From positions 1 to 64,000 of the IMG/VR virus record IMGVR_UViG_3300009184_000038: a stretch of DNA of 64,000 nucleotides; one strand, 5' to 3'. The DNA comes from a virus. Below the pieces are notes generated by a model, which saw only the letters and a program-made list of their open reading frames with translations, ran no database searches and was not told the DNA's origin. Positions 938-39,601 of this stretch are shown one piece after another (positions within the stretch are counted from its first letter, which is position 1; every line of letters begins with the position of its first letter). A program made the translations under genes and the position numbers.

Positions 938-2570
938 CGGTTGTCAGGTGCTTGTCGCACCAGCCTTCTGTGACTGTTTCGTACTTCTGACCGCTGCGAT
1001 GGCACTCAAGCAAGAGTTCCCGCGAGCGGTTCACCCAATCCCCAACAAACTTGTCGATGTCTCGTCCAGTGGCCTCTGCGGCCTCGCGAAGTTCTTCTCG
1101 CATCCGCTGGCTCGTCTGATCGAACCACGTTGCGATCTTCTCGGGCTTGCTGCGGCGCTCGAGAACGCCGTCAGCTTCGACGGCGGCGAGACGGCGAAGG
1201 TTCGTCTTGAACAGCACCTCGGCACCGGCGACCTGTCGGGCATCCTCGGCAGCCGCGGGGGTGTCGGCGGCGGCCGGCTCGGGCGTGTCGGCCACGCCGG
1301 CCGGCGGAGCTGGCGAAGATTCGGTCTGCTTCTGCCCCGTGGGGTTGTCGGCGGTGAACGCCTCGAGCAACTGCATATTTACCTGAATGAACCGCTTCTT
1401 GCCCTGCCCGTCGGGCAGCGGGTTGTAGCCAATCTGCGAGCGAATTTCGTCGATGTCCAAGGCACCGAGGTTCGCCATCTCCCGCAGGAACTGCGAACGC
1501 GCGGCGTAGTCACCGACCATCAAGGCGTTCGTGTCGAACTGGCAGAAATACTGCTTGTCGTCGACTACGAGATCGCGGCGGCACGCCATTTCCCATCGGC
1601 GGCACCACGGGATCAAGCTGAACGTGACGAAGTCGATGGCCGACTGTTCCACAGTCGAGAAACGAACATTCGACAAATCACCGATAAGGTGGCCTGGGAC
1701 GCGGTAGGCACGCGAGACCTCCTCGCATTGGTACCGGCGAGTCTCAACGAGCATAGACGTATCGTTACGCTGCTCGATCTGCTTGCGGTGGAAGCCGAAC
1801 GGCATGACAACGGTTTTGTATGCGTTCATCGGCCCCTGATGGGCGTCGTTCCACTGCTCTCTGAACCGGGCCAGCACCTCTGGCTTGTGGGGCTGGTCGG
1901 TTTCGATGTAAGTGCCGGGCTGTCCGTTGTTCCCGAAGAATGCACCCGAGTGCAGCTCGGTCGCTCGGGCCAGACCGATCGCGTCTCGGGACAGGGTCGT
2001 TGGTACAAAGCCTGTCACCCCGTCTGACGAGAGCCACCGCAAATGAAAAATCTCGTCCTGCCGATACTCAGTGACCTCGATCTTGGGCTGAACCGGCGTC
2101 GTCGGTTCGGTGTAGTAATACCGGAGCTTGCCGTTGGTGAGCCGCTTGACCTCCATCCGCGAAGGATGCAGCGGGATAAGCTCGGTCACGCCGCCCTGCC
2201 GGCCGCCCTTGATGTGAGCGTAGGCGTTGCCCCAGAGCAGGAGCCAGCTTTGCATCAACTCGCGGAACTCGAAGCCCGTCATCCACGAGTTGGGCTGATA
2301 GCAGATGACCTCGTGGAGATGCTGCTCTTCGGCGATTTCCTTGCCGCCGCCGGGTAGGCGGCGGTAGACGTTGAAGGGGAGGCTGGCGATCGACTCCGAC
2401 AGTACGCGAACGCAGGCGAGAACAGCCGTGCATTCCAGGGCCGTCTCGGGCGAGACCGTGACGCCCGATGCCGTGCGTCTGGTATTGGAAATCTCCTCGA
2501 AGATGCGGGACAGATTGCCGCGAAGCTCAATCAGATCGGAGACTTCTTCGTCAATCTTATCCACGTTCAA
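921..2570 (-). CDS. HK97-family portal protein
   Basis: Motifs AVLACVRVLSESIASLP, LLLWGNAY, LIPLHPSRM, EIFHLR, RAYRVPGHLIG, EIRSQIGYNP; lies directly after terL. Confidence 0.96.
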   Translation of the reverse strand: MNVDKIDEEVSDLIELRGNLSRIFEEISNTRRTASGVTVSPETALECTAVLACVRVLSESIASLPFNVYRRLPGGGKEIAEEQHLHEVICYQPNSWMTGFEFRELMQSWLLLWGNAYAHIKGGRQGGVTELIPLHPSRMEVKRLTNGKLRYYYTEPTTPVQPKIEVTEYRQDEIFHLRWLSSDGVTGFVPTTLSRDAIGLARATELHSGAFFGNNGQPGTYIETDQPHKPEVLARFREQWNDAHQGPMNAYKTVVMPFGFHRKQIEQRNDTSMLVETRRYQCEEVSRAYRVPGHLIGDLSNVRFSTVEQSAIDFVTFSLIPWCRRWEMACRRDLVVDDKQYFCQFDTNALMVGDYAARSQFLREMANLGALDIDEIRSQIGYNPLPDGQGKKRFIQVNMQLLEAFTADNPTGQKQTESSPAPPAGVADTPEPAAADTPAAAEDARQVAGAEVLFKTNLRRLAAVEADGVLERRSKPEKIATWFDQTSQRMREELREAAEATGRDIDKFVGDWVNRSRELLLECHRSGQKYETVTEGWCDKHLTTDAAAT

Positions 2571-4069
2571 AGCACCATGAGGGTTGGTTCGTCGGTGTTG
2601 CCGTGGTTCTCGCTGCTGGAGATACCGAGGGCCATGATCAGAGAGACCGCGCCGTCGATGCGGGCCGTCGAGTGTGAGTGTTTTTTAGTAGGCTTTATGT
2701 TCCCGGCATCGTCGATCTTGACTTGAACATTCGACATCTGCCACGCCAGAACGGGGTTGCCAGCGTGTCTCAGCCTTTTGCCGACGACGAGTGTCTCGAG
2801 CAGCTTGCTCGGCGCGCTCATGCTGGCAAAGCCCTGTCCAAACGGCTTAACGTCGATTCCCTCCGCTACCAGTTGCGTCGTCAGATGCACCGCGTTCCAG
2901 CGGTCAATGGCGATGCCGCGAACTACATTCTTCTCGCAAAACGAGAGAATGTAATCTCGGACTGTGTCGTAGCAAGTGATATCACCATCCGTCATTCTAA
3001 CAAAACCAGCGTCCGCCCAGGCTTGATACGGCACTCGGTCTTCCTTCGACCGCTTGTGCGCGTTCTCCTCGGGGATGAAGAAGTGGGCGTGAACGTCATA
3101 CGTTCCATCGGCGTCGGGCCAGACCGCCACGAACGCCGTCGTATCGAATGTGCTGGCGAGGTCAACGCCGCACCAGCATGGCCGCCCTGCCGTCGGCCGC
3201 AGCGGCTCGTTGTTGGCGTCCCAGGCACCATGCCTGATCCACTTGGTTTCGGAACGCTGGAATAAATTCAAATGGAGCGTCTTGAAAACAGTCTCGTCTG
3301 CCGGCGAGTCCTTCGCCTTCTGTGCGAATTGATGGAAATACTCGGGTTTCAGCGTAATTCCGTAGTTCGGATTCGCCTTCTTCCACGTCTCCTCGACGAA
3401 CGGGTCGTCCTCGGGATCGGCGGCGTAGATGCACGGCAGGAACGAGTCGTCCTTCAGAACCCCATCGCGAATCTTCACTGCCCGCTGCCAGTCCTTGTAG
3501 CACGGGCCGTCCATGTCGGTGCCGGCCGTCGTGATGTAGATGGTGAGCGGCTGGCTCCTGGCTCCAGTACCCGTTTCCAATACATCGACCAGCTCGCGGT
3601 CGGGAAAGACGTGATATTCGTCGACCAGCACGCAACTCGGGTTGTAACCGTGTTTCGTGCCGGCCTCGCTGGAGATACAGAGCATCGTCGAGTTCTTTTC
3701 GGGGAACACGATGCTGTTGCGGTATATCTTGCACCGCTTCGCCAGCGATGGGCAGCTTTCGACGAACTGCTTCGCCGCGGTATGGAGCAGCGCCGCCTGA
3801 GAGCGGTCGCCGGCCGCGACGATCACCTCGGCCCCCTCGTCATCGCAGCACAACATGAACAATCCAACCGCTGCGGAAATCGCGGATTTTCCGTTCTTGC
3901 GGGGCAAGGCGAGCAGGCTTGTTCGATATTGGCGAAGACCGTCGGCCTTCTTCGTGTTGAAGAGTTTGTCGAGGTACTCGTCCTGCCAGGGTTGCAGGAC
4001 AAATGGCTGCCCCGCAAAGTCACCTCGACTGTGCTTCAGTAAGCCGATGAAATCGCGGATATCAACCAC
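2567..4069 (-). CDS. terL: Terminase large subunit
   Basis: LQPWQ, Walker A PRKNGKS, Walker B VLVDEYH, ITTAG, nuclease GVDLAS and RIDGAVS. Confidence 0.97.
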   Translation of the reverse strand: MVDIRDFIGLLKHSRGDFAGQPFVLQPWQDEYLDKLFNTKKADGLRQYRTSLLALPRKNGKSAISAAVGLFMLCCDDEGAEVIVAAGDRSQAALLHTAAKQFVESCPSLAKRCKIYRNSIVFPEKNSTMLCISSEAGTKHGYNPSCVLVDEYHVFPDRELVDVLETGTGARSQPLTIYITTAGTDMDGPCYKDWQRAVKIRDGVLKDDSFLPCIYAADPEDDPFVEETWKKANPNYGITLKPEYFHQFAQKAKDSPADETVFKTLHLNLFQRSETKWIRHGAWDANNEPLRPTAGRPCWCGVDLASTFDTTAFVAVWPDADGTYDVHAHFFIPEENAHKRSKEDRVPYQAWADAGFVRMTDGDITCYDTVRDYILSFCEKNVVRGIAIDRWNAVHLTTQLVAEGIDVKPFGQGFASMSAPSKLLETLVVGKRLRHAGNPVLAWQMSNVQVKIDDAGNIKPTKKHSHSTARIDGAVSLIMALGISSSENHGNTDEPTLMVL

Positions 4070-4544
4070 GCTTGGCTAGAAGAGCGTCCATTGGGTCTTG
4101 CACGACCTTCTCGGCGTGATAGCCCATTCGGGTGCGATCGGCTGGCGTCAGGCCGAGGACAGTCTCAAGCTGCCGGAGTTGCTCGTGGCAGTGATTGCTC
4201 TGGGACTGCCACTTGTTCGGGCGGCTGAAGCGGAGGGAGCCGTCGGGTGCCGTCACCTCGACCCACCCCGAGTCCAGCTTGGCAAGCTGCATCTCGGCGT
4301 CTCGCCAGCGATCCCAGATGATCGAGTATCGCGAGATCACTTCGACATCGCTCTCGGCCAGCGTGCCCATCCTTTGGGTGTAGCCGCAGACGAGGCTGAA
4401 CATCTCCCTGGCTGCCGGCCGCATCCATGACGGAGGGGCGGGCAGCGAGGACAAGGGTGTGCCTAACTCCTCGCGGTAGTTGGCTTCCTCGGAGCCTCGC
4501 AGCTTGAGGAGATGCTTCGGCGTTGGTGCTGGGCCGCGTGCCAT
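4062..4544 (-). CDS. terS: Terminase small subunit (P27 family)
   Basis: MARGPAPTPKHL..LRG, PAPPSWM, LGLTPADRTR; immediately upstream of terL. Confidence 0.9.
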   Translation of the reverse strand: MARGPAPTPKHLLKLRGSEEANYREELGTPLSSLPAPPSWMRPAAREMFSLVCGYTQRMGTLAESDVEVISRYSIIWDRWRDAEMQLAKLDSGWVEVTAPDGSLRFSRPNKWQSQSNHCHEQLRQLETVLGLTPADRTRMGYHAEKVVQDPMDALLAKRG

Positions 4545-4546
4545 GC

Positions 4547-5587
4547 CTAAGAGTATTGCACAGTAGGTAAGGGCCCCGCAAAGGAGTCGGATTTCTTGAT
4601 GTTGCACGCCCAGCAGGCGGCCTGGACATTGTCGGGTCTATGGCCTGGGCCGGAGGGGCCGTAAGACAGGGGCACGATGTGGTCGATCGTGGGGCTGCGT
4701 GGGTGCGGAGTCTCGCTGCCATCGATCTTCGTCCATTTGGAGAGCAGCTCACACTGGCATATCTGGCACGTCCAGTTGTCGCGATGAAGTATCGACTTCG
4801 CTGGAAACGATTCGTAGTGGCAGCCGTATTTAATGCACCTACGTTTGTGTCCGCCAGAATTGATTCCGACATTCAGCGGCGTGCATGTGTCGTTACCCCA
4901 CGAGCTGAACCAGACGGCGATCTGCTCGTCAAGCGTAGCTCCAGGCCGGCTCGTCAGCCTAGCGCATGGAAGGCGAAGTCGCCTCGCCTCGAAGGCACAT
5001 TCTCTGGAGCAGTATTTGCCAGCGTTTCGCCCAGATGTGCGCTTTCGGAATGGCTTTTGACAACAGAGGCACTGCCGCCGCTTCGCCCGCCTTTTGGATG
5101 CCTCCGCTCGCTTTCCCTGGGCCTCCGAGATGGCTTTTTCAGCGCAGGGCCGCGAACAGAACAGGCTTCTTGACCGGCCTGGGATAAAGGCTTTGCCGCA
5201 GCACTTGCACGCTTTTTCGGCGAATCGACTGGGGTATCGGCATTTCTCGCTACAGAACATCGAGTTGATTAACCCGACGAAGCTCACGCCGCATCCGCAG
5301 CACGTCCGATCGTGAACCCTCTTCTTCCGCTTCGCTGCACGGCGGCACGCTTCAGAGCAGTACCTTCGCGACCGCCCACTCGCTCGCGAGTCCTGCGGAA
5401 CGCCGGCACCGCAGGAGACGCACGCAACAGTCGCTGGCTTTAGCGGCCTCCCCTCGGCGGCTCGCTGGCAGCGACGAGAACAGTATTTTCTCGGCTTAAC
5501 GCCGAGCGAGGGGGGGAGCGACGACCCGCAAACAACGCAGCATTTGCCATCCTTGGCGTTTTCTCCGGCGTCTCCACGCACCCACAC
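4547..5587 (-). CDS. HNH endonuclease with five N-terminal CxxC...(Y/F)CSxxC zinc-ribbon repeats
   Basis: C-terminal RDNWTCQIC...TIDHIVPLS...H...NVQAACWACN; repeated KYCS/RYCS/FCS motifs. Start codon uncertain. Confidence 0.85.
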   Translation of the reverse strand: MWVRGDAGENAKDGKCCVVCGSSLPPSLGVKPRKYCSRRCQRAAEGRPLKPATVACVSCGAGVPQDSRASGRSRRYCSEACRRAAKRKKRVHDRTCCGCGVSFVGLINSMFCSEKCRYPSRFAEKACKCCGKAFIPGRSRSLFCSRPCAEKAISEAQGKRAEASKRRAKRRQCLCCQKPFRKRTSGRNAGKYCSRECAFEARRLRLPCARLTSRPGATLDEQIAVWFSSWGNDTCTPLNVGINSGGHKRRCIKYGCHYESFPAKSILHRDNWTCQICQCELLSKWTKIDGSETPHPRSPTIDHIVPLSYGPSGPGHRPDNVQAACWACNIKKSDSFAGPLPTVQYS

Positions 5588-5711
5588 AGTCTACCGCACA
5601 AGACATTTTCTCCAAATCGTCGGGCTGCGGAGGCGACCAGCAAAAATAGTACGCCCCCCGGCGTGCCTTCTCCTTAGGACATGCGGTCTGCCCTGCGCCA
5701 CCCCTCGACCG

Positions 5712-5734
5712 GGCACCCCCCATTGGGGGGTGCC
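5712..5734. repeat. Perfect inverted repeat GGCACCCCCC-ATT-GGGGGGTGCC in the candidate genome-end (cos) region
   Basis: Seen directly. Lies between the divergent packaging operon and the plus-strand island. The cos role is inferred from position only. Confidence 0.5.
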
Positions 5735-5817
5735 GCTGACGGGCCACCCCCTGCGCTGTGTCTCCCGCCGAATTCCGTCAAGAATCAAGCAGCGCATGCC
5801 GAATCAATAACCTAGGC

Positions 5818-5845
5818 TTGACGCACACTGTGCGTCTGCTAATAT
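5818..5845 (+). promoter_or_regulatory. Sigma70-like promoter P1 with overlapping palindrome
   Basis: TTGACG-N16-TAATAT with extended -10 TG. Inverted repeat GACGCACA-C-TGTGCGTC at 5820-5836. Shares TAGGCTTGACnCACAC with P2. Confidence 0.75.
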
Positions 5846-5895
5846 CTGTGCATGCGGGCCGCGCGGCCCGCGATCACCAACGAAGAGAGAAGACG

Positions 5896-6729
5896 ATGAA
5901 AACCGCGAATGCCCCTAGCGTCTTAGGTACCTTTTCCAAAGCTATCCCAACTGCGCGAAGCTTGAATTTCGGTCTATCGGGGGGCGCAAACTGTGAAACT
6001 AGTTGTCGCCACCACCCGATTCATTATTCGGGCGCATTGTCGCACGATGGTCAATGCTATGCCTATGTAGTGGAAGGTAGGAACGATAGGGTACAACTCG
6101 CCGACAAGTTGGGCAGGCATGAGACGATGAAAGCCTCCGAAATCGTCGGGATGGCTTTGGTTGAGTTGTCGCGTCTCAAGCTATACGGAAAAGACTTGCC
6201 CCCTTGGTTTCGATTCTCAACCAACGGCGCAATACCGACTAAAGAGGCTGCGCTTGCCGACCGTCGGTTTATTCCACTACTCCGCGAACTACTGAAATTC
6301 TGCGTTGCCAACGCTATGAAAGTACACTTGCCCGTAGAGTCTGCCGAAAAGGCTGCGTTTTATCGCGAAGTTATTGGTGATCTCGTTACCATTCGCGAGT
6401 CTATTCAGACGCACGATATGAATCCCGACACTATCGCCACCCATGCGATACCTTTGGGCGCATCGTCTTTCACCGCTGGTGAAAATGTCGGCAAGGGGCC
6501 GCACAAGCGTAATCGTATCCTAGCCGCCGCCGCCGCCGCCGCCGCCGCATGGGCAATGCGAACGGGTCGAAAAACCATCGTCTGCCCCGCCGTCAGAGTG
6601 TCTTTCCTATCGCGTTACAAAAATGGAAAAACACGCGAAGAGAACATTGCATGGCGTGAACGCGCGAAGTGTGGCCTCTGCCCCGCGTGCGCCTTGCCGA
6701 ATGTTGACGTAGTGTATCCAGCCCATTGA
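5896..6729 (+). CDS. Cys-containing protein, possibly GP88-like
   Basis: NFGLSGGANCETSC...CYA...WFRFSTNG...C-terminal KCGLCPAC; ATG preceded by the island leader motif. Confidence 0.55.
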   Translation: MKTANAPSVLGTFSKAIPTARSLNFGLSGGANCETSCRHHPIHYSGALSHDGQCYAYVVEGRNDRVQLADKLGRHETMKASEIVGMALVELSRLKLYGKDLPPWFRFSTNGAIPTKEAALADRRFIPLLRELLKFCVANAMKVHLPVESAEKAAFYREVIGDLVTIRESIQTHDMNPDTIATHAIPLGASSFTAGENVGKGPHKRNRILAAAAAAAAAWAMRTGRKTIVCPAVRVSFLSRYKNGKTREENIAWRERAKCGLCPACALPNVDVVYPAH

Positions 6730-6766
6730 TTGAACCACCACCACCACCAACGAAGAGGGTAAAGCC

Positions 6767-6988
6767 ATGCGCGAACGGTTCAATGTAGTTTTGTGGGAAA
6801 AGAGAATGCGACAAGCCATCGCCGATAGGAATGGCGATAGGCTTGCAAGCCTCATGTATGAGAACGATAGGAACGGAGTCTTTTCGTATGATGATTCATG
6901 GGCAGAGGGTTGGGAATACACTCGCGAAGAGTGGATTGTAAGTCTGATCGAATGCGCCGAAACCATGCTGTCGGGAATCAATGACTGA
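6767..6988 (+). CDS. Hypothetical acidic protein (paralog of 7022-7276)
   Basis: Leader CACCAACGAAGAGGG; shares RMRxAIA and REWI..LIE motifs with the next gene. Confidence 0.75.
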   Translation: MRERFNVVLWEKRMRQAIADRNGDRLASLMYENDRNGVFSYDDSWAEGWEYTREEWIVSLIECAETMLSGIND

Positions 6989-7021
6989 CTAGGAACCACC
7001 ACCAACGAAGAGGGTAACGCA

Positions 7022-7276
7022 ATGACTAACGAAGAGACCGCAATGATTGAGCGCATTGAGCAGGCGATAGAAGACCGCGACCCGCGTCGCATGCGGGAAG
7101 CTATCGCCGAATGGGACGGCAAGCCCACTATGTCGGCGAAACAGTTTCGCGATACATTCCAAGGCGCGCGCCGCCGCGAATGGATCGACTACTTAATTGA
7201 GGAATGCGAAGAGGTAGTCGGCATGATAAAAACCAACGATGCCGATGACTACTGGGCGACGCGCGGCCGCATTTAA
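7022..7276 (+). CDS. Hypothetical acidic protein (paralog of 6767-6988)
   Basis: Same leader motif; shared peptide motifs. Confidence 0.75.
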   Translation: MTNEETAMIERIEQAIEDRDPRRMREAIAEWDGKPTMSAKQFRDTFQGARRREWIDYLIEECEEVVGMIKTNDADDYWATRGRI

Positions 7277-7289
7277 TTTCATCACCAAC

Positions 7290-7321
7290 GAAGAGGGCAG
7301 GCGCATGCGCCTGCCCTCTTC
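7290..7321. terminator. Perfect 32-bp palindrome, possible terminator or attenuator
   Basis: GAAGAGGGCAGGCGCA|TGCGCCTGCCCTCTTC just after the first island operon; no clear U-tract. Confidence 0.5.
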
Positions 7322-7327
7322 TCCTGC

Positions 7328-7386
7328 GCGGTGGTGTGCGTCTGCTCCTGCCTAGCCGTAGGCGGTGGTGTGCGTCTGCTCCTGCC
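7328..7386 (+). repeat. 25-bp direct repeat, two copies
   Basis: GCGGTGGTGTGCGTCTGCTCCTGCC at 7328 and 7362; core TGTGCGTCTGCT also occurs in promoter P1 (5829-5840). Confidence 0.9.
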
Positions 7387-7802
7387 CCCGACCGTGGCAA
7401 CGAGCACCGCGCCCCCCGAACATGGGAACCAGCGCACCAGGCGAGCACCCCCGAACGTGGCAACGAGCTGCCACCCCCGAACGTGGGAACCAGCAGCCGC
7501 CGGGCGATCACCCCCGAACATGGAAACGCGCGGCCCGGCCGTGGAAACGAGCAGCCCCCGAACGTGGAAACTCGGGGGTATCACGAGCCGGCCGGCCGCC
7601 TTATCGGCCCTCCTGGGGCATCCTATAGCTGCCATTCTGGCGAAAACTGCCCCCGACCGTGGAAACGGTGGCCGACCGTGGAAACGATGCGCAGCCCCCG
7701 ACCATGAAAAAAATTGTCGCCATCGGGGAGGCTCGAGGTTAGCCCCGACCGACGAATTTTCTCACACTACCAACTGTCCAGGCGGCCCCCGACTGTGGAA
7801 AA
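7385..7802 (+). repeat. Non-coding array of about 12 co-oriented degenerate CCCCCGAMCRTGGVAAC repeats
   Basis: Copies near 7385, 7413, 7448, 7474, 7511, 7534, 7555, 7650, 7671, 7695, 7743, 7786. Confidence 0.88.
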
Positions 7803-7834
7803 ACACGCTGAGAAAAGAAAAAAAGATTTTAGGC

Positions 7835-7862
7835 TTGACTCACACCATGCCGACTGTATGCT
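7835..7862 (+). promoter_or_regulatory. Sigma70-like promoter P2 with upstream A-tract
   Basis: TTGACT-N16-TATGCT preceded by AGAAAAGAAAAAAAGATTTT (UP-like); homologous to P1. Confidence 0.75.
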
Positions 7863-7923
7863 TGGGTGATCACGCGGCGACGATTCGCCCGGTTGAACAG
7901 GTGACACGAAAAGGAGACGAGCG

Positions 7924-8409
7924 ATGACGGCAACGGAGACAAGGGTATGGGAAGTGATTCGCGGCTTCGGCCCAATCGATGAGGGGCGTGAAAAGTGTTT
8001 CGACGTTGAACGTCTCAAGCGCAGGTTCACCAGCGAAGCCGATGCTGTGGCATTCGCTGAGTCGCACTACGATGCACGGGTCGGCAAGCTTATGCGGCGC
8101 ATGCCCGACTGGTGGCAATCGTTCTTCGTGATCGTGCGGCCCGCGAAGGCCACCGTGCCGACGGCTGCGGGTCTCGCGCTGGTATTCGACCGTCGCCTGC
8201 GTGACGATATCGGCAGTGATGCCTATGCGGAGGTGATCCGTCGCAATCGCACCCCCGACTATGAGCGGGCCTGCGCATCGCACGACTTCTGCGATGCGAA
8301 CGTGACGATGATCGAAGCCATGATGGAATTCGGCATCACCCCCGACGATGACTTCGGCCATGCCCTGTTCAATGCAGCATGGGATGCATGGCGCGAGAAG
8401 ACGAAGTAA
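7924..8409 (+). CDS. Hypothetical protein
   Basis: RBS AAGGAG; CASHDFCDAN motif. Confidence 0.75.
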   Translation: MTATETRVWEVIRGFGPIDEGREKCFDVERLKRRFTSEADAVAFAESHYDARVGKLMRRMPDWWQSFFVIVRPAKATVPTAAGLALVFDRRLRDDIGSDAYAEVIRRNRTPDYERACASHDFCDANVTMIEAMMEFGITPDDDFGHALFNAAWDAWREKTK

Positions 8410-8464
8410 TTCACCCCCGACCGTAACAACCACCAACGACCACCCCCGAACGGAGAAACGAGAC

Positions 8465-8698
8465 ATGATCACGATGCTTGGACTGGAAACCCGCAGTTAT
8501 ACCTTCAAAGCATTCGGTGCGACCGAAGGCGATGCGCTGCGTGAACTGTGGGCAGCATGGAAGAGGCATGTGAAGCAGTGCAACATCAGTCTGGCCGACT
8601 CATGCTTCCCGACGATTGACCACATGAAACTTGAGGGCATCAGCATCATCAAAATCTACAAGCTGCCCCTCTGCCTGCGGGACGGCGAGACGATCTGA
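8465..8698 (+). CDS. Hypothetical protein
   Basis: ATG follows leader CCCCCGAACGGAGAAACGAG. Confidence 0.7.
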   Translation: MITMLGLETRSYTFKAFGATEGDALRELWAAWKRHVKQCNISLADSCFPTIDHMKLEGISIIKIYKLPLCLRDGETI

Positions 8699-8745
8699 CC
8701 CCCGACCGTAACAACCACCACCACCCCCGAACGGAGAAACGAGCG

Positions 8746-9240
8746 ATGAACGATACGACATGGTATTCGGTTTATGAGCATAAGGATGCGAGCGGATACG
8801 ATTCGGACTATATGCCATTCAACACGAAGGAAGAGGCAATCGCAGACGCGAAGTCTAACCTAGAATTCGCTGGCGGCATCGGCGGCGAGATTTTCGTGAT
8901 CCCCGTGCCGACCGAATGGTACGCATCGCTGCCCGAAGATGCCGAATGGTCTCTGTGGGATGAGATGGAGCGAATCCCTGCCAGTGATTACATCTGGATT
9001 CACTGCGGCATGGAACGGGCAGAAATCCGCGCGGAACACGAAATGCCGCTACCGCAAGAGACCACCGATATCGTGGACGAGATGCTAGACATGGCAGAAA
9101 TCGTCCATGCGGAGATGAGCGAAATGCTGACGAATGCGGCAGACGAGATCACGCGGCTGCGTGAACAGGTCAACGAGACGCATCGCATCATTCATGAGCA
9201 GAATATTGAGATCATCAAGATGATGAGCGCGAAACGGTAA
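8746..9240 (+). CDS. Hypothetical acidic protein with C-terminal coiled coil
   Basis: Same leader; very D/E rich; AADEITRLR motif. Confidence 0.75.
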   Translation: MNDTTWYSVYEHKDASGYDSDYMPFNTKEEAIADAKSNLEFAGGIGGEIFVIPVPTEWYASLPEDAEWSLWDEMERIPASDYIWIHCGMERAEIRAEHEMPLPQETTDIVDEMLDMAEIVHAEMSEMLTNAADEITRLREQVNETHRIIHEQNIEIIKMMSAKR

Positions 9241-9268
9241 CCACCACCCCCGAACGGAGAAACGAGCG

Positions 9269-9424
9269 ATGACGAATCTGACCTTGCAACAGGCCCGCGA
9301 TGCTGTGCGGCGTGAATATCTTCTCGTTGGCCTGGATGCCGACGTGGAGATCGAAGGGTTCGCCGACATGGATGCCGACCAACTCCGCGACGAGATCACC
9401 TACCTTGCCGACTATCAAGGCTAA
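9269..9424 (+). CDS. Small acidic protein (51 aa, not in ORF track)
   Basis: Same leader; MTNLTLQQARDAVRREYLLVGLDADVEIEGFADMDADQLRDEITYLADYQG. Confidence 0.7.
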   Translation: MTNLTLQQARDAVRREYLLVGLDADVEIEGFADMDADQLRDEITYLADYQG

Positions 9425-9497
9425 AGACTACTGTAGACGACTTCAGAACCCCCGACCGACGAAACGATACCACCACCCCCGAACGGAGAAACGAGCG

Positions 9498-10142
9498 ATG
9501 CTGACGAAAGATATCAAACTAGGAATGCAGGCCCGCGTGAAGATTGGCGACCGTCTCGCGGTCGTGACCGTGACCAACAAAGCCAACTACAGCGGCGGCC
9601 GACGGCAGGAATGGTTCTGCCGAACGCACGATACCGGGCGCATGATCACCGCGACGGCTGCGCGGCTGCGGCCCATGCCCGGAACACCAGAGAATGCGGC
9701 GGCGCATGCCCGACGGCTGAAAGCGGCTGAGAAGCGATGCGCGGCGAAGCCGAACGTCTCCACCCCCGAACACACTCCAGTGCTCGTCGCCCCGCAGCCC
9801 GTGCCTGGAGTGTTCGCGGTGGCGAATCCCGCCCGCCCGATTGAACGCATGGCCCGGTTCAATCATGAGGGTATCGCCCGGATTCTGGACGGCATCCATG
9901 TCGGCGCATCGTGGCGGGACGCCTGCCGCGCCGTCTTCAAGGTGGTCGGCAAGGGCGGGAGGCTGCGAGGGATGCCGCTGCCGATGCGGCGTGGGTGCTG
10001 GCAGGCAGTCGCCGAAATCCATGCCGACAACCTCGCGGCGTATCGCGAGGTGATGGGACACAAGCCACTCCCGACCGTGGAAATGATCACGGCTGCGATG
10101 CGTGGAGACGAGGCCGCGCGGCGAGCGGTGCTGGCGAGCTGA
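9498..10142 (+). CDS. Hypothetical basic protein
   Basis: Same leader; N-terminus MLTKDIKLGMQARVKIG...TGRMITATAARLR. Confidence 0.7.
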   Translation: MLTKDIKLGMQARVKIGDRLAVVTVTNKANYSGGRRQEWFCRTHDTGRMITATAARLRPMPGTPENAAAHARRLKAAEKRCAAKPNVSTPEHTPVLVAPQPVPGVFAVANPARPIERMARFNHEGIARILDGIHVGASWRDACRAVFKVVGKGGRLRGMPLPMRRGCWQAVAEIHADNLAAYREVMGHKPLPTVEMITAAMRGDEAARRAVLAS

Positions 10143-10217
10143 TCGAATGCGATACCCCCTGGTGCGTTACCTGGGGGCCGACCGTGGAAACGATAAACCC
10201 GAATAAGGAAACGAGAG

Positions 10218-10676
10218 ATGTACGGAACAGTGAGACTCGAGGCTGGCGGATTTTGTATCGACGATGAGCGTGAAGCGATGGTGCAGGATTTTCTGAACCG
10301 CACCGGCATCACCATGCGGGCGACGTTCGTGGAATACGCTCCATTCTTCGATGATGAAGACAAGCCGCGATGCATCTGGAGAGTGTCGATTCGCCTGGAT
10401 CGTCGCGGATTCTCCGTCCGATTCGGTCAGTCGATCGTCGCCAGCGAACAGGGGCTGCCGCCGACTGCCGCCGATGTTCTCGCCTGCCTGCCGCACAGCG
10501 ACCCCGGCAGTCTTGAGGAGTTCATCGACGAGTATGGCGAGTGCTGCGCCGACGAGATGCCTATGCGGAAGTATCGCCGAATGGAGCGGGCCTGGAAGGA
10601 AACCCGTCGCCAGTGGCGGCAGATCGAACGTGTCTTCGGCAATATCGTCGGCCTTGACGAGCTGGATTCGTTTTAA
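10218..10676 (+). CDS. Hypothetical protein
   Basis: Variant leader AAGGAAACGAG; FGQSI...PTAADVLACL..SDPGSLEEFIDEYG. Confidence 0.75.
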   Translation: MYGTVRLEAGGFCIDDEREAMVQDFLNRTGITMRATFVEYAPFFDDEDKPRCIWRVSIRLDRRGFSVRFGQSIVASEQGLPPTAADVLACLPHSDPGSLEEFIDEYGECCADEMPMRKYRRMERAWKETRRQWRQIERVFGNIVGLDELDSF

Positions 10677-10721
10677 CCCCCGTGCATGAGAACCAATAAC
10701 CCCCGTAGCAGGAAACGAGAA

Positions 10722-10922
10722 ATGAAACCGATGCTCCCCTGGTGGTCGTGTTCAGCAACGATCCTCGAGTTCGATCCCGTCTTTGGAGAATACGTCGATA
10801 ACACCATCGATCATGACACGCGGGCCGCGACTGCGGAGGAGGCTGAAGAGGATGCCCGCGAAACGTGGAGCGATCACGGGTACAACCCCGAGCGAGTAAA
10901 GGTGCGGAGGGTCGAAGGATGA
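10722..10922 (+). CDS. Hypothetical acidic protein
   Basis: Variant leader CCCCCGTAGCAGGAAACGAG. Confidence 0.65.
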   Translation: MKPMLPWWSCSATILEFDPVFGEYVDNTIDHDTRAATAEEAEEDARETWSDHGYNPERVKVRRVEG

Positions 10923-11209
10923 ACGCCTACCAACTCTCCCCCCGCGTGACGCTCCAGCCTGGCGATCGATTCCGCGCGAGCGGCGGCCCCTACTGGAAGT
11001 GCGGCAGCGAAACGATACCGATGGCAGCTCGTGGCTTATTCACGCTCGTTGAGGTGCTCCGCAGGAGGAGCCGGGTCTACCTCCTCGCGGTCGGGCGGGA
11101 GGGCTACTGCCTCCTGCACGTCGAAGGCAGGAGGAAAAACAAGTCGATGCCGAATCTCGTCTGCCGGCCGTATCGGATTCGGCGGGCGGCCAGCCAGAAA
11201 AATCCTTGA
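10919..11209 (+). CDS. Hypothetical basic protein
   Basis: ATGA overlap with the previous gene. Confidence 0.65.
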   Translation: MNAYQLSPRVTLQPGDRFRASGGPYWKCGSETIPMAARGLFTLVEVLRRRSRVYLLAVGREGYCLLHVEGRRKNKSMPNLVCRPYRIRRAASQKNP

Positions 11210-11226
11210 GCCCAACGAAAGACCGC

Positions 11227-11255
11227 TTGACTACTAGCCAATCTTTCTTTAGGAT
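11227..11255 (+). promoter_or_regulatory. Sigma70-like promoter P3 overlapped by a CTACTAG box
   Basis: TTGACT-N17-TAGGAT; GACTACTAGCC at 11229-11239. Confidence 0.6.
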
Positions 11256-11339
11256 TGCCACAGAACGAGACGATACTAGCAGGGGCCGCGGTGGCCCCGA
11301 CCGGCGAAACGAGAAAACCCCGACTAGGAGAACGCGACG

Positions 11340-11609
11340 ATGGGAGCCGTGAAACGATTTTACGAAGACTGTGCCGAGGCAGGCCGATGCCCGCTCTCGA
11401 CGGAGGCTTTCGGATATCTGGACGACCTGGAATGCGAGCGAGATATCGACTGGATCGGCTACTGCGAGCATGACTATGTCGGCCGTGACGGTCGACTGTA
11501 CGTCGAGGAGTGCATCACGATGGAGTCGGCCCGCCGGCTTATTGCCGAGGGGCTGGCGCACCCCGAGATCGTGAATTTCGTGGAGTGTTTCGGAGATATG
11601 TGCGTCTGA
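11340..11609 (+). CDS. Hypothetical acidic protein
   Basis: RBS AGGAG and variant leader. Confidence 0.65.
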   Translation: MGAVKRFYEDCAEAGRCPLSTEAFGYLDDLECERDIDWIGYCEHDYVGRDGRLYVEECITMESARRLIAEGLAHPEIVNFVECFGDMCV

Positions 11610-11800
11610 CGGGATTCCCCGCCGACACGAACGAGTACGAGTTCGTCATTACTTCCAGCCGCATCGTCGGCCAGCTCGTGATGCACGACCATGAGGATGG
11701 CACTGCGGAGTATGACACTCCGTTCACGATGACCCTCGCCGGCCTCCACAACTTCCTGCGGCAGTTGCCGCGCCATGCGAATGCGTTTGCTATCGACTGA
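11600..11800 (+). CDS. Hypothetical protein (GTG start)
   Basis: GGAG RBS upstream; overlaps the previous stop. Confidence 0.5.
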   Translation: MRLTGFPADTNEYEFVITSSRIVGQLVMHDHEDGTAEYDTPFTMTLAGLHNFLRQLPRHANAFAID

Positions 11801-11879
11801 ACCAGACCTAGCACCCGCGCTCGAGGGCCGCCGCCACCCCCGAGCGTGATAACCCCGAGCGGCGAAAGCAGAGGACACG

Positions 11880-12338
11880 ATGAAGACGAAGACCCCAAAG
11901 AAGCGGCTGACCGGCAAGGCCGTTGACCGCGAAATCGATGAAGAGCGAGCCCGCCTGCGGAAGTACCTCGCGAAGCTCACGCTGGAGAAGCCAAGGAGCG
12001 ACGACAGCGGCTATGAGTATCGGCTGCCGCTGACGTTTCGGATGTTCACGATCGTGTATCAGATCGACAAGGCAATGGTCGGCACGCCCGACTACATGGG
12101 CATCGCCGGATGGTGGAGCTACGAATACAAATTCGACCTGCGCGAGGCGACGAATAAGGAGCGGAAGAAGGCGCACGACGCCATCCTTGCCGCCGGCCTT
12201 CCGTTGGACGGCGAAAGCCAGGAGCACGCCCAGATCGTCGCCTGGGCAACGAACAACGGCAGGATGGCTGCCAAGGCAATGGGCGGCAAGTGGTCGCCGT
12301 ACCGTGGCCCCCGACCGGCGAAACGAGGTGCGACATGA
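11880..12338 (+). CDS. Hypothetical protein
   Basis: RBS GAGGA and variant leader. Confidence 0.7.
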   Translation: MKTKTPKKRLTGKAVDREIDEERARLRKYLAKLTLEKPRSDDSGYEYRLPLTFRMFTIVYQIDKAMVGTPDYMGIAGWWSYEYKFDLREATNKERKKAHDAILAAGLPLDGESQEHAQIVAWATNNGRMAAKAMGGKWSPYRGPRPAKRGAT

Positions 12339-12616
12339 AGAAAGACGACCGCGTGATGCGGGACTATGTGATGGGTGGCAACTACGTTGGCACCGTCGCG
12401 ACGATCTGCTCCCTCCGCGAAAACGGGTGGAGCGTCGAAGAGATTGCTGCACAGATGCCGATCATCGGCAAGACTTGTGGCAACGAGGCGATACGGGCAG
12501 CCGGCTTGAACGGTGGGCCTCGAGTTAGTTCGCTCTACGAGCACATGAATCTGTTCGGAGAGCAACTGTGTGAGAGACTGCGTGAACTGCGGACGATGGA
12601 TATTTCCACCAACTAA
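12335..12616 (+). CDS. Hypothetical protein
   Basis: ATGA overlap; leader CCCCGACCGGCGAAACGAGG embedded in the upstream gene. Confidence 0.65.
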   Translation: MKKDDRVMRDYVMGGNYVGTVATICSLRENGWSVEEIAAQMPIIGKTCGNEAIRAAGLNGGPRVSSLYEHMNLFGEQLCERLRELRTMDISTN

Positions 12617-12629
12617 GGAGACCCCGTAC

Positions 12630-12806
12630 ATGAAAAACAGACTCAATCCCTACGAGGCCGGCTGGCTGACATTTCTGGTCAGCTCCGGCATCGCCAGCGA
12701 GGCCGACTGCCGTGCCGCGATGAACCGCGTGGCCCAGGAAGCCCTCGACGAGATCAATCGCCTGCGGGCGAAAAAGAAGGCTGGAAAACGTCGCAAGGAT
12801 CGATAG
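12630..12806 (+). CDS. Hypothetical protein
   Basis: RBS TAAGGAG. Confidence 0.65.
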   Translation: MKNRLNPYEAGWLTFLVSSGIASEADCRAAMNRVAQEALDEINRLRAKKKAGKRRKDR

Positions 12807-12869
12807 GCTACTAGCCGATGGTTTGATTAGCTACTAGGAACGATTTCACCTGAAGAAAGGAGGCTCAGA

Positions 12870-13178
12870 ATGAGCCGTTCAGTGGGCGATTCGGTATGGC
12901 TCTCGACAACGCACGTCGCGTTTGACGGTGAGGCCAGAGCACACATTGTCCCGGCCACCGTGGCTGGCGTGTTTGAGAACATCGTGATGGTCAAGATGCC
13001 GAGCGGTATGGTCACTTCGGCGAGGCAGGGCGTGGATTCGCTCTGCGACAGCGAGGCAGAGGCATGGGCTCTCGCTGCCCGCGAGTTGTCCGAGGCCCGC
13101 GATCGCGTCCAGGCGGCGATCGACAATGCCGTCGCCAAGGCGGCCAGCAGTCGCGTCGGGGAGGCTGTCGCGACATGA
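12870..13178 (+). CDS. Hypothetical protein
   Basis: RBS AAGGAGG. Confidence 0.75.
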   Translation: MSRSVGDSVWLSTTHVAFDGEARAHIVPATVAGVFENIVMVKMPSGMVTSARQGVDSLCDSEAEAWALAARELSEARDRVQAAIDNAVAKAASSRVGEAVAT

Positions 13179-13321
13179 ACCCCCGTGCGTGGAAATGGGT
13201 CATGGATGACCTGATCCGCACCCTCGTGCTCGTCCGACTCGGGCAATTGCTCGGGTCGGAGAGCACGGCGGCGCGGGCCGTCCACGACCTCGTCGAGGCT
13301 GTTTTTTCGATTGTCAGATGA
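13175..13321 (+). CDS. Small hypothetical protein
   Basis: ATGA overlap; GGAGG RBS. Confidence 0.55.
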   Translation: MNPRAWKWVMDDLIRTLVLVRLGQLLGSESTAARAVHDLVEAVFSIVR

Positions 13322-13375
13322 TTGGTATGACGCATAGAATGTCACCCGTACCCCCGAGCATAGAAACTAGAGGAG

Positions 13376-13750
13376 ATGACGATGCTTTACGTTCTAGGCG
13401 ACTCAAGTGAGCCGCGGCAGTTTAGGCGAAAAGATGGCGAGTGGACGCCGAACATCGACGATGCCGAGCATATGACCATCGAAGATGCCATCGACAAGCA
13501 GGCCGAGCTGATCGACGACCCCCGCATCATCAACGTATGCGAGGCACCGCTCATGCACGAGGCGATGTACGCGGACATGGGCCGTCGGTTCGACGAATTG
13601 CAGGAGCGGCTTCGCGAGCACGAAGTGTTCCTCGAGTACGAGATCGGCGAGGGCGACGAGACGACTTGGAAGATCACGTTTGAGCGGGCTGGCGTGGCCC
13701 TCGTTCTCAAGCTGGAAGACCCGAACTCTTTTGAAATGGTGGACGCATGA
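13376..13750 (+). CDS. Hypothetical acidic protein
   Basis: RBS GAGGAG and variant leader. Confidence 0.7.
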   Translation: MTMLYVLGDSSEPRQFRRKDGEWTPNIDDAEHMTIEDAIDKQAELIDDPRIINVCEAPLMHEAMYADMGRRFDELQERLREHEVFLEYEIGEGDETTWKITFERAGVALVLKLEDPNSFEMVDA

Positions 13751-14028
13751 ACGACGAGTTTAAAGACTATCTGACGATCATCCAGACAGCCAAAGCCGTA
13801 GGCTGCTCGCGGCGAACGCTGTACCGAGTCGTTGAGCGGATCGGCACCGACGAGATCGTGACCGTGGCATTCGGCAAGCGGCTCGTCCACAAGTCGAAGG
13901 TTGCCGCCATCAAGGCCGCCTATATGCCCCTGGGGAGTAAGAAGCACTCAATGGCTGCTCGTGCCTGGGGGTCGGCCGGCGGGACGCAGAAGCGAATCAA
14001 TCGCGAGAAGGCAGCCAAGAAAGCCTAG
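13747..14028 (+). CDS. Helix-turn-helix DNA-binding protein (excisionase/HTH_17-like)
   Basis: YLTIIQTAKAVGCSRRTLYR...FGKRLV. Confidence 0.8.
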   Translation: MNDEFKDYLTIIQTAKAVGCSRRTLYRVVERIGTDEIVTVAFGKRLVHKSKVAAIKAAYMPLGSKKHSMAARAWGSAGGTQKRINREKAAKKA

Positions 14029-14312
14029 CTCGAGTCGCGGGCCGTGCGCCGCGCATGGCAGGAGTGGCACGTTGTCCTTAAATTGCTCATGGACTCATCA
14101 CCCCCTTTCGACTTCTCGACGATATGGTCGATGTCGGGGCTGCCGGTGACGAGCAGCCCGCACAACTGGCAGATGCCCATGTCGCGGGCGATCACGGCAA
14201 GCCGGGTGCGCCGCCACGCCGCAGAGCAGTAGCCGCGGGCCGCCGCCGTCGGCCGCTCCTGCCCCCGTGCAGGGGAACGATCAGGACGGTACGTCGGGAT
14301 TCTTTTCGGCAC
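14025..14312 (-). CDS. Small HNH endonuclease (HK97 gp74-like packaging HNH)
   Basis: MPKR...AAARGY...WRRTR...RDMGICQLCG...DIDHIVEKSKGG...NLRTTCHSCH. Confidence 0.9.
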   Translation of the reverse strand: MPKRIPTYRPDRSPARGQERPTAAARGYCSAAWRRTRLAVIARDMGICQLCGLLVTGSPDIDHIVEKSKGGDESMSNLRTTCHSCHARRTARDSS

Positions 14313-14625
14313 GAGCCTGCTCCTGCCAGCCGACCATGAGTACCTGATGGGCCTGCCTGCGCCGCCACCACTCGATGATCGCCTTGACGATCAGTTGGGC
14401 GAGCACGCTGATCAGGATCGCGGCGATGACCGAGCCGTACTGATCGCGAGCCCGTAGGCGTAAACGAGCGGAGAGCACCTCTGCCATGCGGTCGGGCGGC
14501 GCGTCGGTTGGGAACTCCTCGACCGCCCACTCGACGAGCCGGTCGCGGAGGGCGGGGTGAGCCGACAGCCGGATACCGCCTGCGCGGTTGACGTAGGTTT
14601 TCAGCGTTTCGTATTTGGCGGGCAT
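14281..14625 (-). CDS. Membrane protein
   Basis: Hydrophobic segment VIAAILISVLAQLIVKAIIEWW. Confidence 0.65.
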   Translation of the reverse strand: MPAKYETLKTYVNRAGGIRLSAHPALRDRLVEWAVEEFPTDAPPDRMAEVLSARLRLRARDQYGSVIAAILISVLAQLIVKAIIEWWRRRQAHQVLMVGWQEQARAEKNPDVPS

Positions 14626-38649: not shown

Positions 38650-38746
38650 GCCGAACCCACTCGTCCACCGCGCCCCACCAAGGGGGGGCGCGCCCACCTA
38701 GACTTCAAGCATCGGCGTGGTACTCCTTTTGACGGAGAGTCACCCC

Positions 38747-39601
38747 ATGCGATTGCTTCAAGTGCTTCACGATTTCTACGCGCCGCTGACGGGAGTCAGC
38801 GACCGCACGATCACCCTCTACAGCTACACGCTTCGTGCGTGGGGGGAGGTTCTCGGGCGACCGCCTGAGACCACAGATTTAGAAGAGCTGTCGGTCGCGC
38901 GGTTCTTGGCTCACCGTGTTCGCACGATGTCGGCCGCGACGGCCGCGAAGGATAAGGCCCAGGTCACCGCCATCTGGGGGTTCTGCTCGAGGCGTAAAAT
39001 GTGCGAGACGTGGCCTCAGACTCCCAGGATCATCGTGCCCGAGCGGGTGCCGGAGTGCTGGATGACGGACGAGCTTCAGCGAGTGATCGACTCCGCGAGG
39101 CAGGAGCCGTACAGCTACTGCGGCTTCTCTGGCTCGCTGGTGTTCCCCGCGATGCTCCTGACCGCTTACTCGACGGGGGAACGCATCGGCGCGATCATGG
39201 GCCTCAAGTGCCGCGACGTTCGCGGTTGCAGCGTTATCTTCAGAGCGGAGGATCGCAAGGGGCGTCGGCGGGACATTTTCCGCGACATTAGCGTAGCCTG
39301 CGCCGATGCGCTCCTGGCTGTTGCCCGCGGGCCAGAGGATACCGCCATCCCGTGGGATCGGCACCCAACCTACGTCTACAACCGGCTGAAGATCATCCTC
39401 AAACGAGCCGGCCTGCCGCACGGCCGCAAGGACAAGTTCCACAAGGTCAGGAAGACGACCGCCTCCTACTACGAGGCGGCCGGCGGCTCTGCCCAGCGTC
39501 TGCTTGATCACTCGAGCCCAGCGGTCACGAGGAAATACCTAGACCCCAGGATCGTCAGCCCAGGCGTGCCTGCCCCGAGCGTGCTTCCCAAGGTGGTCTA
39601 G
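38747..39601 (+). CDS. int: Tyrosine recombinase/integrase
   Basis: STGERIG (R), KGRR (K), FHKVRKT (HxxR), LLDHS, TRKY (Y). Confidence 0.9.
   Translation: MRLLQVLHDFYAPLTGVSDRTITLYSYTLRAWGEVLGRPPETTDLEELSVARFLAHRVRTMSAATAAKDKAQVTAIWGFCSRRKMCETWPQTPRIIVPERVPECWMTDELQRVIDSARQEPYSYCGFSGSLVFPAMLLTAYSTGERIGAIMGLKCRDVRGCSVIFRAEDRKGRRRDIFRDISVACADALLAVARGPEDTAIPWDRHPTYVYNRLKIILKRAGLPHGRKDKFHKVRKTTASYYEAAGGSAQRLLDHSSPAVTRKYLDPRIVSPGVPAPSVLPKVV

Follow-up and report, generated by a model that had tools for sequence, protein, structure and literature searches.

What is signalled by a short DNA word that recurs, always in the same orientation, between the small genes of an uncultured freshwater phage, and what might read it? 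The question is raised by the IMG/VR virus record IMGVR_UViG_3300009184_000038 (74,545 bp, rated complete by CheckV), of which bases 1-64000 constitute the window analyzed here. About 21 short genes run on its plus strand between positions 5896 and 14028, and an earlier note, made from the letters of this DNA, had described this island as a run of early genes, most of them carrying a conserved start-associated repeat, and had seen in it a cassette-like array. As far as sequence comparison can tell, the repeat is a clade-wide conserved punctuation signal of phage early genes, whose reader we tentatively seek in a DNA-binding regulator encoded by the island itself. The label "early" is provisional, being taken only from the position of the island, the orientation of its genes and its host-type promoters. 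All public DNA runs found to contain the stretch are freshwater metagenomes, with no RNA dataset among them, and a megablast search of the island against public phage records gave zero matches.

The repeat resolves, in a position matrix, into a core word of the form CCCCGA-n-CG-nn-GAAAC, usually followed by GA (18 nt in all). The window holds 16 matches with at most one mismatch, against 0.5 expected, all of them on the plus strand between 7386 and 13367. When up to three substitutions are allowed, the whole 74,545-bp genome holds 25 matches, every one of them on the plus strand and inside the 5.8-14 kb island, so that the copies are limited to 11% of the genome. The strict single orientation that had been claimed for the repeats thus holds for all 25 copies, and the motif is not equally frequent outside the island, the outcome that would have spoken against its special place there: at this threshold no copy was found elsewhere in the genome on either strand. 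Positions 7, 10 and 11 of the word are free, and the remaining core positions are conserved alike in array copies, in copies distal or proximal to a start codon and in copies that overlap an ATG; in proximal copies the free middle bases spell a ribosome site. The triplet GGA, which in proximal copies is this ribosome site, occurs in only ~55% of copies, is not among the conserved positions and is missing from most distal copies.

The word is tied to gene starts, although not to them alone. An open reading frame (ORF) with its ATG within 70 nt follows 71% of copies, compared with 41% of random positions, and the distances from 121 copies to the ORF start that follows peak at 8 and at 21-23 nt, with a broad distal class besides; the proximal mode of 21-23 nt is counted from the start of the word, which corresponds to 2-4 nt from its end. 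At most junctions the word occurs twice, at a spacing of 15-29 nt; the distal copy often comes directly after a stop codon and the proximal one ends 2-5 nt before the ATG. Genes that overlap their predecessor carry no copy. In relatives the word may also straddle the ATG or precede a separate ribosome site. The description of the repeat as start-associated is therefore apt for the proximal copies but too narrow for the whole, since the word is found as well after stop codons, over the ATG, upstream of a promoter and in gene-free arrays.

A retrieval based on the large terminase (TerL) yielded 80 loci. Five complete relatives carry 13-33 copies of the word each, on one strand and within ~10 kb, and 17 more viral contigs, found by an exact-word scan followed by loose counting, carry 5-35 co-oriented copies; in the six complete genomes every copy lies on the coding strand. 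The same 11-12 core positions are kept across phages whose TerL is down to ~60% identical, while flanks and genes change. Conservation well beyond a Shine-Dalgarno sequence, which the earlier note had asserted, is borne out by a word that is oriented, limited to the island and kept in relatives with TerL 59-98% identical. The gene maps share a backbone, made up of an array of copies, a conserved element which we call the P2 box, the promoter P2, variable small genes and, in last place, a helix-turn-helix (HTH) gene, with the word between nearly all genes. The gene content of the island differs between relatives and the junction word stays, so that a fixed gene content, which would have told against a cassette-like array, is not what the relatives have; their content varies, and indels against the closest of them that holds the island are bounded by leaders. 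Among bacterial genomes the exact 16-mer gave ~120 single matches, in line with a rough chance estimate.

The further proposal that the layout is cassette-like and that the repeats supply homology for gene shuffling was upheld in part. In comparison with this genome L096, the closest relative holding the island (~80% nucleotide identity), has an extra gene after the first promoter P1, with leader-like sequence at both bounds; it is without genes 6767 and 7022; and it is without genes 7924 and 8465, where five initial codons of 7924 survive at the junction, joined to the leader that follows. These three indels start or end in leaders. When all pairs of islands are compared, a copy is found within 20 nt of 39% of the homology break-points but of 19% of random positions; ordinary mosaicism at gene boundaries, or the extension of alignments through the repeat, may account for part of this enrichment. 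The four proximal copies at the junctions of the type named leader B are identical in this genome but divergent among themselves in L096, a pattern suggestive of local gene conversion. A general homogenisation of flanks within genomes was not seen, the flanks usually being closer to those of copies in other genomes. The array of the relative G001 consists of 5 exact tandem copies.

The region in front of P2 shows where the word stands when no gene follows it. About 12 gene-free copies are spread across 7386-7806, between the hairpin of the first operon and P2, and ~10 of them, co-oriented, form a non-coding array on the plus strand (7386..7715) with irregular spacing of 19-45 nt and periods of 63, 26 and 21 in Tandem Repeats Finder (TRF). 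The array follows a strong terminator-like hairpin, and its copies sit where P2 does not transcribe. Downstream of it lies the P2 box (7759..7780, plus strand), a 22-bp element with the pattern TTCTCAC, four bases, CCAA, one base, TGTCCA, which 12 islands share and which keeps a constant distance to the -35 hexamer. A single copy of the word (7787..7806, plus strand) starts 46-48 nt upstream of the P2 -35, a position that it holds in 8 of 12 P2 regions, and is followed by an A-rich tract and by P2 itself (7835..7862, plus strand), the main sigma-70-like promoter of the island, which was found in a consensus scan and is conserved across relatives. Another copy, at about +12, begins 47-51 nt downstream of the first base of the -35 in 8 of the 12 P2 regions; its 5' half is buried in a conserved 8-10-bp hairpin at the 5' end of the transcript and would therefore be hidden from a reader of single-stranded RNA. 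The conserved order is thus array, P2 box, copy 46-48 nt before the -35, A-rich tract, promoter and ~+12 copy.

Some peculiarities of this region are recorded here in their own right. Two copies of a 25-bp direct repeat, read from the sequence, precede the array (7328..7386), and all relatives have a tandem repeat at the equivalent place, 5' of the core-word array and 3' of the hairpin of the first operon (L090:1-280; L091:1500-1930; L096:6640-6775; L092:11240-11470 and 12920-13010, both minus; L110:2620-2850). The tandem units are unrelated in length and sequence between phages (25 bp x2, 60 bp x4.7, 31 bp x14, 12/19 bp x10, 47 bp x6, 8 bp x13 and ~65 bp x3.5), and the repeats of the relatives are longer than the one here. 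In G003 a second P2 box stands ahead of the first operon. Moreover, G002 and G003 (L091:2150-2372; L092:10805-11060) have a gene of ~75-85 aa on the opposite strand between array and P2 region; it is the only reverse island gene and lacks a copy of the word on its coding strand.

Whether the word acts as RNA or as DNA was addressed by structure and pairing tests. An Rfam scan of 5500-14500 at E <= 1 returned nothing. The idea that the array is a structured sponge RNA was rejected, its fold being no better than that of shuffled sequences (z = +0.18). Leaders fold less stably than their shuffled versions (mean z = +0.91, n = 147), and the leader B junctions are unstructured as RNA. Pairing with an upstream arm was no commoner than in shuffled pairings, except for the 5' hairpin of P2, and the variable positions A9 and C16 showed no covariation. 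Tethering to ribosomal RNA was likewise discarded, on the weak test of a Pirellulales 16S rRNA as a stand-in for that of the host: the best match of the word is 8 nt and the shuffle mean is 8.4, and in the same test the separate leader A motif reaches 10 nt, a value equalled or exceeded by 15 of 200 shuffles. A promoter of the extracytoplasmic function (ECF) type or any two-element promoter was rejected as well, because the spacing misfits and too little room is left between word and ATG. A free middle between two conserved blocks, set about one turn of the helix apart, is typical of the recognition of double-stranded DNA. That the same core is kept in all contexts points to a single reader contacting two blocks, and the copies outside the P2 transcript at fixed promoter positions point to reading at the DNA level, although they do not prove it.

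A candidate for this reader is the last gene of the island (13747..14028, plus strand), which encodes a 93-aa winged-helix protein with weak Pfam HTH matches and, present in 19 of 23 island stretches, is shared more widely than any other island gene. Its AF2 model has a pLDDT of 85.5, and its best Foldseek matches are RacA, BldC, TraN, Xis, RdfS and pSK1 Par. The fold class of RacA, BldC and Xis includes proteins that bind arrays of direct repeats, namely BldC, Xis and pSK1 Par. The HTH family is small and metagenomic (119 clusters), and a search of PDB sequences with its profile gave only matches with E > 0.1. In G001, G003 and L110 a paralogous subfamily of the protein begins 10-40 nt after the array; one array-adjacent paralogue is located at L090:403-684.

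Taken together, these observations lead us to propose, tentatively and with somewhat less than even confidence, that the word represents oriented double-stranded DNA binding sites for the island's own winged-helix regulator, which would act as operators where they adjoin P2 and as roadblocks of the stoperator type in the junctions. Host RNA polymerase would initiate at the sigma-70-type promoters P2, P3 and P4, and ~20 small genes would be transcribed. The regulator, encoded by the last gene of the island, would build up as the operon is expressed; it would load cooperatively on the array by P2, on the copy ~47 nt upstream of the -35 and on the copy at ~+12, and it would also occupy one or two co-oriented sites in each short junction, which such sites fill because the junctions are only 30-60 nt long. 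Bound regulator would then shut the island down, with initiation blocked at P2 and elongation blocked in an orientation-dependent, stoperator-like manner. The start-proximal copy might have adapted its free middle bases to double as a ribosome-binding site, and the shared word might, as a side effect, provide short homology for gene gain, loss and conversion. The analysis establishes the anatomy, the strand bias, the confinement to the island, the conservation in relatives, the common core of all contexts and the fold class of the protein; who binds the word, that DNA is the target, that binding represses and when it does so are points that we infer.

Several observations weigh against this proposal. 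The Foldseek matches of the protein are weak (E = 0.02-0.3) and its fold is a very common domain; its link to the word is a co-occurrence inside one clade that offers no negative cases, and a 58-aa protein with a basic tail (12630-12806) is almost as widespread. P2 of this genome, of L096 and of G002 is without the ~+12 copy, no copy overlaps the -35 or -10 hexamers, and the fixed distances around P2 may have been inherited from a common ancestor rather than kept by selection. Read-through, or an unseen promoter for the paralogue gene, could yield transcripts of the arrays, and the tie to start codons and the open leaders fit a role in RNA equally well.

An RNA-level signal in the leader, comparable to the start-associated sequences (SAS) of actinophages, is accordingly the rival that deserves most attention, although we regard it as somewhat unlikely. 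Acting in the mRNA beside each ribosome-binding site, the word would then be an unstructured standby or enhancer platform, or the operator of a sequence-specific translational repressor or activator, and the early cistrons would be co-regulated after transcription by a factor such as the 58-aa protein with its Arg-rich tail or a host factor. The restriction of all copies to the sense strand, their enrichment near ATG-led ORFs with sharp distance modes at 8 and 21-23 nt, the merging of proximal copies with the ribosome site, the overlapping genes without a word and the significantly unstructured leaders are all in agreement with it, and a documented parallel exists in the SAS of actinophages of Clusters K and EF. 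However, the array copies and the ~47-nt copy lie outside the P2 transcript behind a strong hairpin, half of the word is in a hairpin at P2, the distance to the start varies, with the word before or over the ribosome site or over the ATG, and the conservation is bipartite with free middle bases; complementarity to 16S rRNA is no better than that of shuffled words, and no RNA-binding protein was identified. A further idea is that of a single sequence-specific factor with two roles, which would silence at ~15 junctions, with the array copies acting as a decoy or reservoir (of DNA or of read-through RNA) that times the silencing by a CsrB-like titration, based on a new pair of protein and word; this we consider improbable. 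A related CsrA/CsrB-like circuit proper, in which the array would be the sponge RNA for a phage CsrA and the leader copies its mRNA targets, might be suspected from the csrA homologue of the phage (30492..30635, minus strand, outside the island; PF02599, 54 bits), which all five complete relatives encode too, from the GGA in many units and from the two sites per leader, which resemble the dual-site binding of CsrA. In the CsrA-CsrB/RsmZ systems GGA is found in every unit, usually in a hairpin loop; here CsrA is present, but GGA is not a conserved part of the word, being mostly absent from distal copies and identical with the ribosome site in proximal ones, the array does not fold into a succession of hairpins that present GGA, no Rfam family matches, and the array lies behind a terminator-like hairpin. 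Such a circuit is thus very unlikely.

It is decidedly improbable that nothing is dedicated to reading the word and that it serves as an adaptor for recombination or arose as a by-product of descent. The leaders would then be copies of one successful expression module, multiplied by duplication and by recombination, either illegitimate or at short homology, and the arrays would be what is left of deleted cassettes. This would account for the L096 indels that begin and finish in leaders, for the break-points enriched near copies, for leader B copies identical here and divergent in L096, for leader A, which has been copied four times too and is without the core word, and for the irregular spacing of the array. 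It accounts poorly for core positions that are kept at ~60% TerL identity while flanks and genes change, for the conserved position of array, P2 box and flanking sites, for arrays that are perfect recent tandem copies, as the five exact ones of G001, and for flanks that are closer to the copies of other genomes than to those of their own. Least probable of all is a promoter or start signal for a phage-specific transcription system, as in T7-type promoters or the intergenic repeat promoters of the halovirus HF2; a conserved, oriented word upstream of most genes would be expected of it, and the literature offers precedents (PMC8707807). The word, however, ends 2-5 nt before the start codon or overlaps it, which leaves no room for a transcript leader with a ribosome site; host-type promoters already head the units, no two-element promoter is compatible with a tandem spacing of 15-29 nt, and no RNA polymerase or sigma factor was found among the large proteins scanned, the genome not having been searched exhaustively for one.

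The genes behind P2, which under the proposed DNA-binding regulator would be those punctuated by its sites, are all on the plus strand. The first of them (7924..8409; 161 aa, PHROG 21393), which is absent from L096, has a leader without the core word. The leader B junctions (8415..9496) have distal copies at 8415, 8700 and 9450 and proximal copies at 8444, 8725, 9248 and 9477, and lead to genes 8465-8698, 8746-9240, 9269-9424 and 9498-10142, so that leader B precedes the ATGs at 8465, 8746, 9269 and 9498 as had been read; the stretch 8412-8464 is indeed an A/B hybrid, in which the first 9-10 nt of leader A stand between two B-type copies. One copy (10069..10087) lies inside the 3' end of gene 9498-10142. 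The degenerate copies reported before 10218, 10722, 11340, 11880, 12335 and 13376 were all recovered. The first two of these genes, 10218-10676 and 10722-10922, follow the pairs 10176/10197 and 10677/10701 (10176..10720), whereas the next gene (10919-11209) overlaps its predecessor and carries no copy. P3, a sigma-70-like promoter from the consensus scan (11227..11255), is followed by copies at 11295/11318, 11838/11853 and 12309 (11295..12327) before genes 11340-11609, 11880-12338 and 12335-12616. The 58-aa helical protein with an Arg/Lys-rich tail (12630..12806), present in 18 of 23 island stretches by clustering, has no family match, and ESM Atlas returned nothing for it. A copy at 13181..13199 marks the start of the small gene 13175-13321, a place conserved in G001-G003. 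Promoter P4 (13311-13340) is succeeded by a copy at 13352-13370, a ribosome site and gene 13376-13750 (13311..13370 for promoter and copy; the same layout in G002), the true start of which may lie a few codons downstream of 13376. Only four promoter-like sites (P1-P4) thus serve ~20 genes, P1, P3 and P4 heading the other units, and no promoter hexamers were detected within junctions by the consensus scan.

Upstream of the array, P1 (5818..5845, plus strand) heads an operon with a leader of its own. It is a sigma-70-like promoter that scores 9/12 with a TG extension in the consensus scan and is conserved in L096, and a hairpin with an 8-bp stem (5853..5872, plus strand; -18.9 kcal/mol, z = -2.2) lies at the 5' end of its predicted transcript. 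Leader A is a 13-mer separate from the core word, with four exact matches (5875, 6745, 7000 and 7283) against 0.18 expected. The four positions had been given correctly; they lie 21-22 nt before the ATGs at 5896, 6767, 7022 and 7305, with the correction that the first gene starts at 5896. Three of the copies (5875..7012, plus strand) precede genes 5896-6729, 6767-6988 and 7022-7276. The fourth does not serve as the leader of a gene, as only a 16-codon ORF follows; it forms the 5' arm of the 14-bp terminator-like hairpin that ends the P1 operon (7283..7321, plus strand; -34 kcal/mol, z = -5.6). Gene 5896-6729 encodes a Cys-rich protein of 277 aa, in which a (GCC)8.7 repeat (6523-6548) spells a poly-Ala tract. 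In the ESM Atlas the protein falls close to clusters of GP88/DUF7227 phage proteins (score 0.95); Pfam and PHROGs gave no match. G002 and G003 have a Cys-rich gene at the matching position, its similarity being judged by reading the sequence only.

The remainder of the genome is that of a tailed phage. A scan of large proteins identified a portal (921-2570), TerL (2567-4069) and a 2972-aa virion protein with Ig repeats; a small terminase (4062-4607) and an HNH endonuclease (4547-5587) lie on the minus strand, and portal, terminases and HNH endonuclease together with most other long ORFs share this strand. The view that the genome outside the island is minus-strand is therefore mostly but not wholly right, since a plus-strand ORF exists at 38717-39601. 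It matches Phage_integrase at 27.6 bits, just over the cut-off, and on this match the phage may be temperate or may carry a Xer-like recombinase. The HNH endonuclease, the small terminase and the large terminase are adjacent in a row (4062-5587, minus). Packaging modules of the cos-type, HK97-like kind usually show such a row, and a cos site may lie near the divergent region 5588-5800. A physical genome end at the island was considered and rejected: the contigs of many relatives stop 1.6-1.8 kb upstream of TerL, but they do so inside long tandem repeats and so probably reflect an assembly break rather than a terminus. Apart from the HTH of the last gene, the 21 island products have no informative Pfam or PHROG match, and the suggestion in the earlier note of a host-takeover or anti-defence array found no support in them. 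A 9.8-kb contig, L124 (JAUMAF010000042.1), binned in a Pirellulales metagenome-assembled genome (MAG), has 22 co-oriented copies of the word along with island genes; this is a weak hint at a Planctomycetota host, but it may also be a binning artefact.

Words of this kind have been described before. Stoperators of Cluster A mycobacteriophages, read by L5 gp71 or the TipsytheTRex repressor, are oriented, asymmetric sites in short intergenic gaps and stop transcription in one orientation only (PMC9283540). The island shares with them more than 20 asymmetric sites per genome in short intergenic gaps and near a promoter, here 25 copies at junctions, flanking P2 and after P4, with an orientation that tracks transcription; the small phage HTH reader is known there and only a candidate here. 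The stoperator is, however, a site of 13 nt spread genome-wide, whereas the word here is unrelated in sequence, 16-19 nt long, without such a spread and confined to one 8-kb island, often present twice per junction and in tandem arrays, and its candidate reader is a MerR/Xis-like winged helix instead of a two-domain repressor of the gp71 type. SAS and extended SAS (ESAS), the function of which is not known, occur in Cluster K mycobacteriophages and Cluster EF Microbacterium phages (PMC3203893; PMC7302621; PMC11373665). SAS too are asymmetric words at the starts of non-structural genes that extend beyond a Shine-Dalgarno sequence and stay while gene families differ, and the word here likewise keeps to one orientation and to a non-structural region. 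With 13 nt at a fixed 3-9 nt from the start and a ribosome site within, SAS differ from the present bipartite word, in which the short fixed distance with a ribosome site is true for proximal copies and other copies lie over the ATG, before a separate ribosome site, after stop codons or in gene-free arrays. ESAS are imperfect inverted repeats of 15-17 bp that carry a promoter and lie immediately 5' of the SAS; the partner here is a second direct copy, and no promoter hexamers accompany it.

Other likenesses concern the reader or the layout. Small proteins of ~70-100 aa such as P2 Cox, 186 Apl, Streptomyces BldC and pSK1 Par bind co-oriented direct repeats next to promoters. The candidate shares the fold class of these Xis-type regulators and, in G001, G003 and L110, a layout of array and then gene; their sites are a handful of short boxes confined to one or two loci, in contrast to a site at gene junctions throughout an operon, and no homology at the sequence level was shown. 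The promoter-early stem-loop (PeSL) cassettes of the hyperplastic regions of T4-type phages are units that each consist of an early promoter and a stem-loop. They resemble the island in that small, exchangeable early genes are bordered by a recurring regulatory unit, at which the break-points between relatives fall, but the junctions here have neither promoter nor stem-loop. CUP elements of IncN plasmids are repeats of several hundred bp with a promoter and regulator sites upstream of leading-region genes. Compared with a word of 16-19 nt that lacks a promoter, the likeness is in layout only.

The word thus adds a new spelling to a class of phage control signals that is known but still lacks an explanation, and it is most likely a site bound by a protein. 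Among the oriented words at early-gene junctions, SAS, stoperators and PeSL, only stoperators have a known mechanism, and the present system offers one short word and one small candidate DNA-binding protein, along with an array and fixed sites that flank a strong promoter. It does so in a clade that numbers at least 17 metagenomic relatives and whose cargo genes change under a constant punctuation, so that the word can serve as a search handle for the early, probably host-directed genes of uncultured freshwater phages in metagenomes. If the stoperator-like reading is true, orientation-dependent transcription roadblocks would extend beyond mycobacteriophages; if a single factor had both roles, this would be the first roadblock system of the stoperator type outside actinophages, possibly in phages of Planctomycetota.

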